A stretch of 59,352 nucleotides of DNA from Thermoplasmata archaeon. GTDB taxonomy: Archaea; Thermoplasmatota; E2; JACPAO01; JAHFTW01. Below are positions 3,415-34,279 of the stretch, in pieces. The DNA is taken from positions 1 to 59,352 of the forward strand of contig JAXDQP010000023.1 of assembly GCA_034667745.1 (NCBI GenBank), in the 5' to 3' direction. Numbering within the stretch: the stretch's first letter is position 1; every line of letters begins with the position of its first letter. A program made the position numbers and the translations under genes. Below the pieces are notes generated by a model. That model was not told the origin of the DNA, did not search any database, and saw only the letters and a list, made by a program, of their open reading frames with translations.

Positions 3415-4286
3415 CCCGGCACGTTGCGGTCCAGGGTGGCGTGGAAGTCCGCCAGCAGCCGCGCCCCGGCCGCGCCTCCTTCCGAGCGGGCCGCCTGCGC
3501 CAGCCGCATCCTGAGCTCGGCCACGGTCCCGGCCGTCAACGCCACGCGGTTGTGTGCCACGGCCAAGGGATAGGGATAGCCGACATACACCGCGTCACGG
3601 CTGAGGGGCACGAGCGCCGCAACCCAGTCCGGCTCCCCCGCATCGACGCGGAAGGCGTGCGGGGCGAGCGGATGCAGCTTGGCAACGTGGACGCCCGGCT
3701 CGACCTCGGCGCGCCACGGCCCGGCGGGCCCGACGCCGTGGAGGTGGGGCACGAGCGGCACGCCGTCGCGCTCCAGGGCGCTGCGCTTGGCCACCGCCAT
3801 GAGGCGCACGCCGTGCCCGGTCGCCAGCTTCTGGAGGCAGTCGGCCATCTGCTGCGCGCCGGGGGGAAGGCCGACGAGGGCGCCGTCCAGCAGGACGATG
3901 CCGGCGGGCGGGGCGCTGGCGATGGCGGACTGGGCTGCCTCGAACTCCCGCAGCGCCCGCCACGCCTCGGCCCAGGCGGTCGCCGTCGCGGCGCGGGGCG
4001 GGTCGAGGCCGTGCGCGAGGTAGGCCGCCGAGATGCCGTCCTGCGCCTCCTGGGCTTTTGCGGCGTGAATCTCCGGCTCGGCCGCCAGCGACGGGCCGGG
4101 CCAGGTGACGGCGGCCGCGCGGGTGGCGACCACCCAGACGGAGCCGTTGTCGACCAGGACCGCGTGGCTGCCATCGACCGCGGCGACCGGGCCGGGCTCG
4201 GCTGCGGCCAAGGGGACGAAGACGGCGGACGGCAAGACAGCGGGCTGCGCACCCAGCAGGAGCCGCACCGCCGACGCCGCGTCCAC
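3411..4286 (-). CDS. nurA: NurA-family 5'-3' nuclease
   Basis: Motifs AAVDGS, LLDGAL, AVAKRS and C-terminal GYPYPLAVAH match NurA. Confidence 0.8.
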   Translation of the reverse strand: MDAASAVRLLLGAQPAVLPSAVFVPLAAAEPGPVAAVDGSHAVLVDNGSVWVVATRAAAVTWPGPSLAAEPEIHAAKAQEAQDGISAAYLAHGLDPPRAATATAWAEAWRALREFEAAQSAIASAPPAGIVLLDGALVGLPPGAQQMADCLQKLATGHGVRLMAVAKRSALERDGVPLVPHLHGVGPAGPWRAEVEPGVHVAKLHPLAPHAFRVDAGEPDWVAALVPLSRDAVYVGYPYPLAVAHNRVALTAGTVAELRMRLAQAARSEGGAAGARLLADFHATLDRNVPG

Positions 4287-4381
4287 GCCCAGCCCAGCGG
4301 GCCGGGCCTCTTCCGGTTTTGGGCAGCGTCGCGCACACCACTCGAAGGGTCTATTTCCTGTCGAGCGGGTCCACGGCCGGG

Positions 4382-5623
4382 ATGCACATGGGGACGGTCG
4401 TCCACCTGCTGGAGCACTTGCTGGGCCGCCACGGCCACACCGTCAGCCTGGACACCGACCTGGAGGGGCGCAGCGGCGCCATCTACACCGTGCCTTTGCT
4501 GGCCGAGCGCGAGTCCGCCATCCTCGTTACCGGCCACCTCGAGCCGACCCCCCTCACCGCCGAGCGCGTCGCCGCCTTCGCCGACACCGTTGCCGACACC
4601 GGCGCCGCCGTGGGCGTCCTCGTCCACCTCGGCCCCGTTGAGGCCGGCGCCGCAGCCGCAGGGCAAGGCCTCGTCGCCCTGTGGAGCCGCGACCAGCTTG
4701 TCCGCCTCCTGGGCGAGACCGAACTCTGCGAAGCCCTCGGCCACGACCTGCCGGACCTGCCGCTGGAGGCCACCCGCGCCGTGCGCGGCCCCGCCGTGGC
4801 GGAATCCATCTCGGACCTCCTGCCGCAGGCCTTCAACGAGCCCGAGCCGCAGTTGGATATCACCGGCCTGGACCTGGGCGCCCTCGTCGCGGAAGCCGCC
4901 ACCGCCCCGCCACCGGCCCACCTGCCGCCGCCCACCCGCAGCCTGCATCCCGCTCCTGCTGCGCCTGCATACGCGCCCCCTCTTCCTCCTCCCACGCCGG
5001 TCGCTCCCCTTCCGCCGCCACCGCCGCCCCGCCCGATGGCGAGCCGGCCGCTGCTGCCGGTACGCGTCACCGAGCAGGACGCCCGCCGCAAGGTCAAGGA
5101 CAAGCTGTTTGGCATCGAGCGCGTCGAGCTGCTGCTCCAGCCCGTCCACCTCTTCGACTACGAGTGCGACCAGCTCAAGGAGGGCTCGCTCGCCTACGAC
5201 ACCCTCGACGGCCGCGTGCAGGTCAACGCCAGCGACAAGACGCTGCTGGACGTGGACCCCGACGTCGCCAACCCCGACGCGCCCACCCTCCTGGCGGCCA
5301 ACCACGGCCTGCCCGTCGTCGAGCGCGTGGTGCGCATCCCCGAGGACCGCGCCCTGGAGCTGGCGCGCCAGCACGTCACCCGCAAGCACGTGCGCAGCGT
5401 CGAGGTGCGGGTGCCCGACCACCACAACTCGCTCATGTACACCGAGCGGCGCAAGGTGGAGCCGACGCCGGACCAGGTCCGCCTCCGCCCGCTGGGCATC
5501 CACTTCCGGCCGGTGTGGCGGATGCTGGGCCGCAACGGCCAGATCGACCTTGACGCGCTGGACGGCCGCGAGGTCTTCAGCGAGGTGCGCGGCGGCCGCA
5601 CCGACGCCATGGTCGTGGACTAG
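4382..5623 (+). CDS. Mrr-like restriction-endonuclease-fold protein (catalytic residues apparently lost) with Pro-rich linker and unknown C-terminal domain
   Basis: N-terminal LEGRSG..., V..F...V, LWSRDQL pattern of Mrr_cat-like domains; PPPP linker; start could be 4382 or 4388. Confidence 0.55.
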   Translation: MHMGTVVHLLEHLLGRHGHTVSLDTDLEGRSGAIYTVPLLAERESAILVTGHLEPTPLTAERVAAFADTVADTGAAVGVLVHLGPVEAGAAAAGQGLVALWSRDQLVRLLGETELCEALGHDLPDLPLEATRAVRGPAVAESISDLLPQAFNEPEPQLDITGLDLGALVAEAATAPPPAHLPPPTRSLHPAPAAPAYAPPLPPPTPVAPLPPPPPPRPMASRPLLPVRVTEQDARRKVKDKLFGIERVELLLQPVHLFDYECDQLKEGSLAYDTLDGRVQVNASDKTLLDVDPDVANPDAPTLLAANHGLPVVERVVRIPEDRALELARQHVTRKHVRSVEVRVPDHHNSLMYTERRKVEPTPDQVRLRPLGIHFRPVWRMLGRNGQIDLDALDGREVFSEVRGGRTDAMVVD

Positions 5624-12253: not shown

Positions 12254-12326
12254 CGCGCCCGGTGAGATTCGAACTCACGACCTCCGGCTTAGGAGGCCGG
12301 TGCCTTATCCACTAGACTACGGGCGC
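12254..12326 (-). tRNA. tRNA-Arg(CCT)
   Basis: Reverse complement GCGCCCGTAGTCTAGTGGATAAGGCACCGGCCTCCTAAGCCGGAGGTCGTGAGTTCGAATCTCACCGGGCGCG folds as a cloverleaf; anticodon CCT; no encoded CCA. Confidence 0.97.
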
Positions 12327-22715: not shown

Positions 22716-23219
22716 ATGGACGAGACCGCCCCGCCCCCCCAGGAGCCCGTGCCCCAGGAGGCCGCCCCCGCCCCGGGCGCCGAGGCGCAACTGGCGGAGC
22801 TGCGCGAGAAGGTGCTGCGGGCGCGCGCCGACTACGACAACCTGGCCCGCCGCACCGCCCGCGAGGCGCAGGTGGAGCGCGAGCGCAACAAGGCGCGCGT
22901 CCTGGAGGGCTTCCTGCCGCTGGCAGAGCTGGCGCACATGGCGGCGCGGCAGGCCGAGGCGCACCCCGGCCCCCTGACGGAGGGCGTCGTGATGCTGGCG
23001 CGCGAGTTCGACCGCCTGCTGGAGCGCGAGGGCGTCACCCGCATCGGCGAGGTCGGCGAGGCGGCGGACCCGGCGCGGCACGAGGTGCTGGCCACCGAGG
23101 CCGCCGAGGGCGTGGCGGCCGGCTGCGTCACCCGCGTCATCCAGCCCGGCTACCTCATGGGCGCCAAGGTGCTGCGCTACGCCAAGGTCGCCGTGGCCCC
23201 CGCCTCCCCGGCCGCCTAG
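22716..23219 (+). CDS. grpE: Nucleotide exchange factor GrpE
   Basis: [33 protein letters not shown]. Confidence 0.92.
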
Positions 23220-23678: not shown

Positions 23679-25568
<1,890 letters not shown>

Positions 25569-32093: not shown

Positions 32094-32107
32094 CGGGGCG
32101 GCAGGGA

Positions 32108-32466
32108 CCTTGGTGGCTCAAAAGCCTGTGCGTAGCGACAGGAGGCGCCCAGGAGGGCGCTGGAATGCGAGAAGGAATGGTATCCGTGGACAGTCCTGCT
32201 GCGGCGGAAGACAGGTCCACAGCCCCAGTTCGTTCGAATCCAGCCGCCAGGGTCCGTTTTCCCGAAGGAAATGGCCTTGCGGATGGACACCCAGGTTTTC
32301 CCCCCTACCACGCCCTTGCGGGTGTGGCCTTCGGTTCGCTTGCCCAAGTCTGGCAATCCCTTGCCGGATTGGGTTGGAGGCGAGTTGGCCGCGCCTCTCT
32401 CCTGGATGCTGGAGGGCCAAACCGGCCGAGGCCGGTCTGTCCTGTCCCTTGGGGTGAGCCAAGGGG
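32108..32466. ncRNA. Candidate structured non-coding RNA of unknown family
   Basis: At least eight hairpins plus nested long-range helices (TGGCTCA/TGAGCCA, GACAGGA/TCCTGTC) in a non-coding region lacking codon bias. Confidence 0.55.
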
Positions 32467-32583
32467 CAACCCTATGCTTTGGTGCCCGAGCTACATAGAA
32501 GTTGGGGATAGGGAAACCGAAACTGCTCGCTTGTATACAGGAAAGCCGAGTTCCCCCCGCCCGGAACCGGGCAACGTGACCCC

Positions 32584-33069
32584 ATGGACCCCGCCGCCTT
32601 CGACTTCTCGCTGTTCAACTGGGTCGGCTTCGTGTTGGCCATCGTCGCCAACATGGTCATCGGCTTCGTCTGGTACGCGCCGTGGTTCCCCACCGGCAAG
32701 GTGTGGCTGCGCGACCAGGGCATGGACCCGAGCAACATGCCCAAGATGAAGGGCGCCCAGATGGCGGTCCCGATGGTCCTCATGGTCATCGGCGCGACGC
32801 TGATGATGTTCGTCTTCGCGCACACCAACGGCGTCTACCTCGACGCCTTCCGCAACACCGCCAGCGGCGGCCGCGCGGGCTACCACCTGAGCGTCATGGA
32901 CGGCATCATGGGCGGCTTCTTCACGTGGCTCGGGTTCGTCGTGCCGCTCAACCTGAACGCCGTCGCCTTCGACCGCAAGCCGTGGAGCACCTTCTTCGTC
33001 AACGCGGGCTACTACCTCGTCGCCTTGCTGGTGGCGGGCATCCTCATCGCCACCGTCGGCGCCAAGTAG
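32584..33069 (+). CDS. DUF1761-family membrane protein
   Basis: NWVGFVLAIVA..IGFVWYAP..GKVW, WLGFVVP, FDRKPW..FFVNAGY. Confidence 0.85.
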   Translation: MDPAAFDFSLFNWVGFVLAIVANMVIGFVWYAPWFPTGKVWLRDQGMDPSNMPKMKGAQMAVPMVLMVIGATLMMFVFAHTNGVYLDAFRNTASGGRAGYHLSVMDGIMGGFFTWLGFVVPLNLNAVAFDRKPWSTFFVNAGYYLVALLVAGILIATVGAK

Positions 33070-33135: not shown

Positions 33136-33157
33136 CCCCTTGCCCGTCGCCGCAGCC

Positions 33158-34279
33158 GTGGCCTCCGGCAAGCGCGACTATTACGACGTCCTCGGGGTGC
33201 CCCGGGACGCCGCCCCGGACGCCATCAAGAAGGCCTACCGCAGGCTCGCCATCCAGCTCCACCCCGACCGCAACAAGGCGGCCGACGCGGAGGACAGGTT
33301 CAAGGAGCTGAGCGAGGCCTACGCGGTGCTCTCCGACGCCGAGAAGAAGGCGCGCTACGACCAGTTCGGCCACTCCGGCATCGACCAGCGCTACAGCAGC
33401 GAGGACCTCTACCGCACCATCGACTTCAGCGACCTCTTCGGCGGCATGGGCTTCGAGTCCATCTTCGGCAACCTCTTCGGCGGGGGCGGCCGCCCGTCCG
33501 GCCCCAGCCGCGGCCGCGACCTGCAGACCCGCCACGCCATCACGCTCGAGGAGGCGTTCGGCGGCACGGAGGCGAAGATCGAGTACTGGCGCCTGGAGGG
33601 CTGCGAGCACTGCAAGGGCAGCGGCGCCGAGCCCGGCAGCAAGGTGGACACCTGCCCCACCTGCAAGGGCCACGGCCAGGTGCAGCGCCTCGTCCGCACC
33701 GCGTTCGGCACCCTGAGCCAGGTCAGCGCCTGCCCCGACTGCCGGGGCGAGGGGCGCCGCGTCGAGACCCCCTGCAAGCACTGCCACGGCTCGGGCCACG
33801 ACCGCCACCGCCGCACCGTCACCGTCACCATCCCCGCCGGCATCGAGGACGGCCAGACCCTGCGCGTGGGCGGCCAGGGCGAGGTGGGCGGGCGCGGCGG
33901 CCCCTACGGCGACCTCTACGTCGAGGTCGAGGTGCGGCCGCACGAGCGCTTCCACCGCGAGGGCGCCGAACTGGTGGTCGAGGTGCCGCTCTCGTTCCCC
34001 GAGGCGGTCCTGGGCGCGCAGCTCAAGGTGCCGACGCTGGACGGCGAGGTCGCCGTGGAGGTGCCGCCCGGCTCCGAGACCGGCAAGGTGCTGCGGGTGC
34101 GCGGCCGGGGCATGCCCCACCTGCGCGGCTCCGGAAGGGGCGACCTGCACGTCCGCCTCCGCGTCGCCGTGCCCGACAAGGTGAGCGACAACGCCCGCCG
34201 CCTCCTGGGGGAGTTGGCGAAGGAGCTGGACGTGGACGCCTCCCGCATGGGCAAGCGCAAGAAAGGCCTATTCGGATAG
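33158..34279 (+). CDS. dnaJ: Chaperone DnaJ
   Basis: KRDYYDVLGV, HPD, G/F region, four CxxCxGxG repeats. Confidence 0.97.
   Translation: MASGKRDYYDVLGVPRDAAPDAIKKAYRRLAIQLHPDRNKAADAEDRFKELSEAYAVLSDAEKKARYDQFGHSGIDQRYSSEDLYRTIDFSDLFGGMGFESIFGNLFGGGGRPSGPSRGRDLQTRHAITLEEAFGGTEAKIEYWRLEGCEHCKGSGAEPGSKVDTCPTCKGHGQVQRLVRTAFGTLSQVSACPDCRGEGRRVETPCKHCHGSGHDRHRRTVTVTIPAGIEDGQTLRVGGQGEVGGRGGPYGDLYVEVEVRPHERFHREGAELVVEVPLSFPEAVLGAQLKVPTLDGEVAVEVPPGSETGKVLRVRGRGMPHLRGSGRGDLHVRLRVAVPDKVSDNARRLLGELAKELDVDASRMGKRKKGLFG

Follow-up and report, generated by a model that had tools for sequence, protein, structure and literature searches.

A candidate large structured noncoding RNA in the Hsp70 chaperone locus of Thermoplasmata archaea

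Introduction

Large, intricately folded RNAs with invariant cores are rare, and historically such RNAs have proved to be ribozymes, ligand sensors, or RNA-protein machines. To our knowledge, nearly all of the orphan large-RNA classes are bacterial. One of them, the raiA motif, has an Rfam model. OLE, ROOL, and GOLLD also have Rfam models and, according to a preprint, were found to form multimers (bioRxiv 10.1101/2024.12.08.627333). Here we analyze a candidate of this kind in archaeal DNA. The window, by which we mean the whole stretch analyzed, comprises 59,352 nucleotides of a Thermoplasmata archaeon (GenBank assembly GCA_034667745.1, contig JAXDQP010000023.1, positions 1 to 59,352 of the forward strand). 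A preliminary description of the window had proposed a nested, multi-hairpin noncoding element at 32108-32466, in an unusually long gap between an open reading frame (ORF) that it took for a surface-protein gene and a DUF1761 gene. The long gap is real, with 490 nt (32094-32583), and we read it as holding a stand-alone gene for a structured noncoding RNA (ncRNA) of ~340 nt, on the plus strand and of a family outside Rfam, with a probability of roughly 0.6. That the element is a real structured plus-strand RNA of a new family is almost certain. Of the checks that the preliminary description had listed, an Rfam search, a comparison of homologues for covariation, folding against dinucleotide shuffles, and a count of genomic copies were run.

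Secondary structure and covariation

The conserved element appears to extend from about 32167 to about 32505 (~340 nt). The span proposed in the preliminary description overlaps it but begins ~60 nt too far 5' and ends ~40 nt too early. Homologues were found in the family of the source genome and in a second class of the phylum (see below), and their comparison revealed compensatory changes in two sets of sequences. An alignment of 13 sequences was scored against a helix set consisting of P2, P3, P4, the base of P5, P6, the base of P7a, P8, and the kissing loop PK1 (Table 1). In this alignment, 95.1% of the cells were paired, compared to 38 to 47% when the 3' partners were slid by 1 to 3 columns, and 18 pairs changed on both sides, compared to 5 or 6 with slid partners. 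None of 500 shuffles equaled the observed values. For 36 distinct sequences in a model-made alignment, which was fitted to the covariance model and hence leans toward the proposed structure, 93.1% of the cells were paired, compared to 42 to 53% with slid partners, and 14 of 17 pairs changed on both sides. The alignment of the 5' domain is imperfect for the most diverged members.

The individual helices differ in how often their pairs are exchanged. P8 is paired in 98.4% of the cells, with five of its seven pairs changing on both sides (36 sequences), and the outer stem of P2 is 96% paired, with two such pairs (13 sequences). The P4 stem takes at least eight complementary forms, including UUC/GAA, AGC/GCU, GCC/GGC, CCC/GGG, GGA/UCC, and CCG/CGG, and two pairs at the foot of P5 covary among the 13 sequences. 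P3 is 94.5% paired and shows a C-G to U-A double change in 4 of the 13 sequences; it rests on column counts, and these lose strength in the most diverged sequences, which MAFFT misaligns.

The loop of P2 carries a near-invariant UGCGGC (32200-05) in all 36 tabulated sequences, and part of it pairs with the loop of P8 to form PK1. The two halves of PK1 read CGGC/GCCG in 29 of the 36 sequences, CGAC/GUCG in 4, and CGGU/ACCG in 2, and the remaining sequence has a C:U mismatch. PK1 is thus complementary in 35 of the 36 sequences, with two kinds of double change, and the four CGAC/GUCG cases were drawn from at least three genera. This covariation would fit an intramolecular and an intermolecular contact alike and cannot tell them apart. 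A kissing loop of ROOL that had been taken as tertiary from covariation proved to be quaternary, as reported in the preprint (bioRxiv 10.1101/2024.12.08.627333), and this bears on how PK1 is to be read.

In the architecture that covariation supports, P3 closes a four-way junction of P3, P4, P5, and P6, and P6 leads into a second one formed by P6, P7a, P7b, and P8. Near-invariant single strands join both junctions. P5, P7a, P7b, P9, and P10 are variable peripheral hairpins in which large insertions are tolerated, and P10 is missing from some genera and from the second class. The P7a arm is one such site of expansion, with inserts of ~180 nt (L019/L072, G007:C8) and 112 nt (L093, G017:C84; L, G, and C numbers designate loci, genomes, and contigs). 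At the 3' end, AUUGG and UAUA..CUUUG-type tail motifs recur in both classes, and we infer that the A/U-richer stretch of the tail may act as a terminator.

Table 1. Coordinates and properties of the proposed RNA and of the genes around it, in window positions
Feature	Position	Strand	Properties
Purine-rich 5' leader	32167-32185	+	AAGGA/GAAGGU-type motif a few nt before P2, found in both classes
P2 hairpin	32186-32220	+	Outer stem 32186-91/32215-20
PK1 kissing loop	32202-05 with 32388-91	+	P2 loop CGGC to P8 loop, 4 bp
P3	32221-27 with 32410-18	+	Long-range helix, 2-nt bulge
P4 mini-hairpin	32229-32238	+	3 bp, UUYC-type tetraloop; all 3 pairs change on both sides
P5 variable hairpin	32239-32287	+	~20 to ~55 nt; long in this genome, short in most relatives
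P6	32288-95 with 32401-08	+	7 of 8 pairs change on both sides, 91.3% paired (36 sequences)
J6/7a junction strand	32296-32307	+	Pyrimidine-rich, GGUUUUYCCCC type; columns invariant or nearly so
P7a variable hairpin	32308-32327	+	Forms a hairpin (4 bp or more) in 42 of 44 distinct sequences; 12 to 79 nt
J7a/7b junction strand	32328-32341	+	CCUYCGGUUCRSUU; 16 variants among 44 sequences, all near consensus
P7b variable hairpin	32343-32373	+	Forms a hairpin (4 bp or more) in 38 of 44 distinct sequences; 10 to 34 nt
P8 hairpin	32376-32398	+	7 bp; conserved loop GAGUnnGCCG holds the 3' half of PK1
P9 short variable hairpin	32421-32436	+	Hairpin of shifting sequence in aligned relatives; pairs by inspection
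UGUCC	32438-32442	+	Invariant in 13 sequences; UGUGC in second class
P10 hairpin and conserved GCAAC	32445-32470	+	RNAalifold prediction with compensatory changes
3' tail, tentative P11	32472-32505 (P11, 32472-76/32494-98)	+	Hairpin in minimum free energy fold, AUUGG in loop; A/U-richer stretch in tail
ORF without Pfam match, 379 aa	30954-32093	-	Bounds the gap on its 5' side
DUF1761 gene	32584-33069	+	Bounds the gap on its 3' side; Pfam match and synteny
dnaJ	33140-34279	+	Follows DUF1761; Pfam match and synteny
grpE	22716-23219		Upstream of the gap
dnaK	23679-25568		Upstream of the gap
SnoaL_2/NTF2-like gene, ~120 aa	29425-29781	-	Divergent upstream neighbor, coinherited with the RNA

Eight local hairpins and three long-range helices had been drawn in the preliminary description. 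Six of the hairpins (32186-220, 32258-71, 32308-27, 32343-73, 32421-36, and 32446-65) are kept in relatives and correspond, in coordinate order, to P2, the tip of P5, P7a, P7b, P9, and P10. The other two (32125-42 and 32145-60) exist in this sequence, but at positions 5' of the conserved RNA, and relatives do not share them. None of the long-range helices (32114-20/32455-61, 32137-43/32440-46, and 32181-87/32279-85) is kept, and the long-range pairings that covary are instead P3, P6, and PK1.

Two other closing helices were considered and rejected. P1, a pairing of the 5' leader with the 5' half and loop of P4, looked compensatory by eye in several lineages but was unsupported by permutation of duplex stability, as permuted partners were as good in 1,151 of 5,000 trials with wide windows, 1,290 of 5,000 with tight windows, and 1,303 of 5,000 with unique targets. 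A helix joining the 5' and 3' ends around AUUGG had no consistent partner across relatives on inspection.

Folding energy and coding strand

The whole gap folded on the plus strand at -231.8 kcal/mol (z = -3.13), and none of 100 dinucleotide shuffles was as good. On the minus strand, the z score was -1.86, with 4 of 100 shuffles as good. For the originally proposed span (32108-32466), z was -2.65, with 1 of 100 shuffles as good, and for the refined span (32170-32505) it was -2.60, with none of 100. The minimum free energy fold of the single sequence finds the local hairpins and misses P3, P6, and P8.

The strand is fixed by conserved G.U pairs, since these would be A.C mismatches on the minus strand. 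At the base of P8, 29 of 36 distinct sequences have a G.U pair, which bears out the earlier remark that G-U pairs favor the plus strand, and one pair of P3 is U.G in 9 of 13 sequences. Judged from these pairs, the RNA is encoded on the plus strand.

These data also bear on whether there is a functional plus-strand RNA at all, rather than GC-rich DNA that folds by chance, a transcript of the minus strand, or a coding stretch. GC-rich sequence does fold well by chance, with shuffled gap sequence averaging -211 kcal/mol against the -232 kcal/mol observed, and long ORFs overlap the element on both strands, for example, 32165-32749 (+) and 32118-32462 (-). However, compensatory changes are found in many helices, and the lengths of the hairpin inserts are not multiples of three (12 to 79 nt in P7a), which together rule out the coding explanation. 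A minus-strand transcript is opposed by the conserved G.U pairs and by the weaker z score of that strand. The covariation in practice refutes all three versions, which we regard as next to impossible.

Comparison with known RNA families

At gathering thresholds, Rfam 15 matched only a tRNA in the whole window. This tRNA gene lies at 12254-12326 on the minus strand and scored 70.2 bits. A permissive scan of the gap returned chance-level matches only (best E = 2.1), and the same scan of 10 homologous loci gave a best E value of 0.52, for matches that were outside the element or irrelevant. There was thus no family match for the element in the window or in these loci. The element matches neither the RNaseP_arch model nor the Archaea_SRP model, and the RNAs that these models describe were located on other contigs of the genome. 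The signal recognition particle (SRP) RNA (G000:C14:15368-15672) scored 133 bits, above the Archaea_SRP cutoff, and a candidate RNase P RNA (G000:C28:31740-32049) scored 60.8 bits (E = 1.2e-16). The claim that the element is not an SRP or RNase P RNA therefore held. The score of the RNase P candidate is below the Rfam cutoff of 84, indicating that the RNase P RNA of this lineage has diverged from the curated model.

The models could in principle have missed a divergent member of a known family, be it RNase P, SRP, a riboswitch, or a large ncRNA. Rfam models can miss deep archaeal variants, and the genome's own RNase P RNA, at 60.8 against 84 bits, is a case in point. However, nothing better than E = 0.5 was obtained in permissive mode for 11 homologous sequences, and the RNase P and SRP RNAs of the genome are accounted for elsewhere. 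The helix order and invariant strands of the element are also, as we take it, unlike those of these families. We consider this explanation highly improbable.

Searches of open-access literature turned up no relevant paper on an archaeal equivalent or on an RNA tied to DUF1761, dnaJ, or SnoaL, and nothing relevant on a novel structured ncRNA with covariation in Thermoplasmatota or Thermoplasmata. The suggestion of an undescribed large archaeal ncRNA is upheld by the absence of an Rfam 15 match, by the strong covariation, and by near-universal presence in one family.

Homologues and distribution

The source genome is a metagenome-assembled genome of 1.78 Mb in 84 contigs that is 77% complete, and the element is present in this assembly as a single copy. 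A blastn search of 39 relatives gave eight matches that define a conserved core at about 32179-32475. A scan for an exact pattern, with each GTDB species represented by one genome, yielded 38 loci, close to what chance alone would give by our own estimate. Ten of these also carry the element's other motifs; eight are labeled Thermoplasmatota or Thermoplasmata, one 'Halobacteriales archaeon', and one 'bacterium', and 8 of the 10 are identical to loci already collected. A longer pattern added three loci in metagenome contigs of the Joint Genome Institute.

Two covariance models, R1 and R2, were used to map the distribution. R1 found the RNA in 29 of the 31 genomes and 10 of the 11 genera of the GTDB family, and in none of 6 genomes of two sister families. 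With R2, matches came from 29 of the 30 other family genomes, and none of the 119 genomes from nine further families in the class had one. The lone family genome without a match (G013) is 71% complete, and no RNA was detected at its SnoaL locus even when the search filters were disabled. In a phylum-wide sample of 151 genomes, strong matches (74 to 92 bits) were found in a second class, in four of six genomes of one family and one of nine of another, with none in the other 133 genomes. A dedicated search of the second class found the RNA in 5 of 21 genomes. The host clade is uncultured soil Thermoplasmatota, with the RNA near-universal in one family and patchy in the second class.

The copy number is one in most genomes and ranges from one to three overall. 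One genus of the family has a tandem pair (G021:C44:10061-10380, G044:C262:2316-2639, and G045:C65:7675-7992), and second loci occur in two genera. In the second class there are up to three copies, including a tandem triple with a spacing of ~430 nt (G205:C8:24167-25149). Five loci (L087-L091) are paralogous copies from two genera in unrelated contexts, and their PK1 reads CGAC/GUCG. The copies of one genus face a tryptophan 2,3-dioxygenase gene in convergent orientation; those of the other lie just after a GyrI-like gene and are convergent with a glyoxalase gene. In the second class (L095, L096, L097, and L099), a strong GC-rich hairpin followed by a conserved GUGUGAAGGUC-type leader lies upstream of each copy and could be an upstream terminator, a processing site, or a part of the RNA.

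Gene context across relatives

Gene context was mapped by tblastn and Pfam. In the window, grpE, dnaK, and a gene for a helix-turn-helix regulator lie upstream of the gap and dnaJ lies downstream, so that, by grpE, dnaK, and dnaJ, the gap sits inside an Hsp70 chaperone locus. The distance between dnaK and dnaJ is ~7.5 kb here and is made up of inserted genes and the RNA. The ancestral order of the family is dnaK (+), a SnoaL_2/NTF2-like gene (-), the RNA (+), an optional DUF1761 gene (+), and dnaJ (+), and this order holds across genera. In five genera, dnaJ begins 110 to 260 nt past the core, and in the source genus DUF1761 intervenes. In two genomes of a sister family (L084 and L086), dnaJ directly follows dnaK and there is no RNA, so that the operon looks as if the RNA and the small gene had been inserted into it. 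Two other sister genomes have dnaJ with different upstream neighbors and likewise no RNA.

The SnoaL-like gene has much the same range as the RNA. At E <= 1e-15, orthologues were found in the source genome and in 27 of the 30 other family genomes, compared to 0 of 119 genomes of nine other families. Wherever it shares a contig with the RNA, the gene is upstream and divergent, and in most loci the two are neighbors. The protein is a possible partner of the RNA, a suggestion that comes from genomic context.

The second-class loci carry none of dnaK, dnaJ, SnoaL, or DUF1761. In G195 (L096, G195:C13, about 4060-4929), a gene for an FKBP26-type peptidyl-prolyl isomerase lies on the same strand ~110 to 150 nt past one copy of the RNA, and in G249 (L098, G249:C64, 932-1684) an FKBP26-type gene lies ~1 kb downstream on the same strand. 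The RNA is here associated, for a second time and independently, with a gene for protein folding.

The distribution and the apparent insertion raise the question of a selfish, mobile, or defense-type element, with the RNA serving, for example, as a guide or scaffold and spreading by transfer and duplication. The RNA is patchy across two classes, with scores between classes (84 to 92 bits) as high as those within the family; tandem arrays of two or three copies and extra loci occur; and the RNA and the small gene appear to split a dnaK-dnaJ pair. Against this, the source genome has a single copy, the synteny is stable across 10 genera, and Pfam shows no transposase, integrase, reverse transcriptase, or nuclease adjacent to the RNA in the loci scanned. 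Terminal repeats or target duplications were not noticed, although no search was aimed at them, and viral contigs gave no matches with one consensus pattern, which misses the window's own variant. The non-autonomous element that the preliminary description had entertained is disfavored for this genome by the single copy and the conserved synteny, tandem and extra copies in some relatives notwithstanding, and we consider mobility very unlikely.

A stand-alone gene or a leader

The next annotated gene downstream of the RNA is convergent in four loci (L064, L065, L071, and L075), in the paralogous L087-L091, and in two loci of the second class (L095 and L097). These loci include every tandem array examined. 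With at least 11 such loci, we read the element as a stand-alone RNA gene and not as a leader. From these arrangements, a stand-alone gene would be the probable state, as opposed to an obligate cis-acting leader. On a by-eye reading, TATA-like A/T-rich boxes stand just upstream of the downstream genes (TTGTATAC at 32533-40 in the window), with an A/U-rich tail beyond the RNA in both classes.

The alternative is a cis-acting 5' leader of the DUF1761-dnaJ operon, and of the FKBP gene in the second class, that works as a riboswitch, RNA thermosensor, or attenuator. At 15 family loci, the window included, the next same-strand gene is DUF1761 or dnaJ, 110 to 260 nt past the core, and the FKBP26-type gene follows one G195 copy at a similarly short distance. 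The tandem copies are reminiscent of tandem aptamers, the invariant junction strands resemble a ligand pocket, and heat-shock genes would be plausible targets of a thermosensor. However, a leader does not fit the 11 convergent loci, which include all of the tandem arrays examined, or the paralogous copies in unrelated contexts. As read by eye, the TATA-like boxes fall in the stretch from the RNA to the start codons of the downstream genes. The candidate 5' switch helix did not outperform permuted partners (see the counts for P1 above), and no known riboswitch class was matched. The leader or switch suggested in the preliminary description is weakened by the convergent loci and by these nonsignificant tests of alternative 5' pairing, and we regard it as unlikely.

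Several points weigh against the stand-alone gene. The 15 loci with a same-strand gene close downstream are what a leader would be expected to show. The convergent genes were called from Pfam matches on raw ORFs, and small unannotated genes may lie between them and the RNA. The promoter and terminator were read by eye from A/T-rich motifs. Expression, both ends of the RNA, and the transcription unit are all inferred. The sequences counted are related, so that the shuffle statistics overstate their independence and the slid-partner control is the fairer one. The covariance models cover the 3' core only (134 nt in R1; R2 was built from 38 matches). The chaperone link, finally, rests on two lineages and could be a historical accident.

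Within the genus, the region upstream of DUF1761 (32506-32583 in the window) has features of its own. It contains, as does the same region in L004, L005, L006, L010, L021, and L052, a conserved GGGAAACCGAAAC box together with a TTGAATA-like box and, just 5' of a GUGA Shine-Dalgarno-like motif, a GCCC...GGGC hairpin. This set is missing from other members and is probably the promoter and 5' untranslated region of DUF1761. J6/7a could pair with a GGGAAAC box upstream of DUF1761 in some genomes of the genus, whereas in others the pairing is absent.

Possible function

As a stand-alone gene product, the RNA would act as a compact folded particle transcribed from its own unit rather than as the 5' leader of a downstream gene. 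Its functional site may be the conserved junction core, which the kissing loop would hold together. The core could bind a protein or ligand, be a catalytic center, or form an interface for RNA-RNA assembly. The repeated position beside chaperone genes, dnaK and dnaJ in the family and FKBP in the second class, points to the protein-folding stress response, in which the RNA could take part or with which it could be co-regulated. We put this link to proteostasis forward tentatively, as somewhat less likely than not.

A more far-reaching proposal is that Archaea would have in this element their first ornate large RNA class. It would then be a self-contained RNA machine and not a regulator, with a catalytic or ligand- or protein-binding center in the invariant junction core, possible intermolecular pairing of P2 and P8 into head-to-tail multimers as in ROOL, GOLLD, and OLE, a SnoaL/NTF2-like protein partner, and a role in folding stress. 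If true, this would explain both the insertion between dnaK and dnaJ and the adjacency to FKBP elsewhere, but we think it rather unlikely as a whole.

The element offers a concrete target of ~340 nt with a covariation-backed structure, a pseudoknot, more than 40 natural variants from which constructs could be designed, and a defined host clade, and the genomic context adds two leads, the coinherited small protein and the recurring chaperone-gene neighborhood. If it is tied to the Hsp70/Hsp40 system, the RNA would be a new kind of player in archaeal proteostasis, and a ribozyme or self-assembling RNA here would extend such phenomena to Archaea. Should it prove to be no more than a lineage-specific scaffold with a modest role, its deposition as a new RNA family would still be worthwhile.

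Comparison with described systems

Aptamers of riboswitches such as the cobalamin and lysine classes, with their multi-way junctions and kissing loops, have an invariant junction core locked by a loop-loop contact, as does the element. Its tandem copies and its frequent position upstream of a same-strand gene are likewise riboswitch-like. However, many copies have no same-strand gene downstream, the one candidate for an expression platform, the 5' switch helix, was unsupported, and the element matches no riboswitch model.

The archaeal RNase P and SRP RNAs are of similar size (~300 nt) and also have long-range helices and loop-loop tertiary contacts. Like them, the element is housekeeping-like, being single copy and near-universal within its family. 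In contrast to these universal RNAs, it is confined to parts of one phylum.

The raiA motif, OLE, ROOL, and GOLLD resemble the element in being longer than 200 nt and multi-junction, with covarying loop-loop contacts. They share with it invariant junction nucleotides, varying peripheral stems, and a narrow lineage range. The raiA RNA takes its name from a neighboring gene and yet is called a noncoding RNA, going by a title cited in the preprint (bioRxiv 10.1101/2024.12.08.627333). All four classes are bacterial, whereas the element is archaeal, lies in a chaperone locus, and has no sequence or model similarity to them, and at ~340 nt it is smaller than OLE, ROOL, and GOLLD. With more than 200 nt, two four-way junctions, PK1, and invariant junction strands, it has the properties by which the large ornate ncRNAs, a descriptive rather than a homology-based class, are defined.

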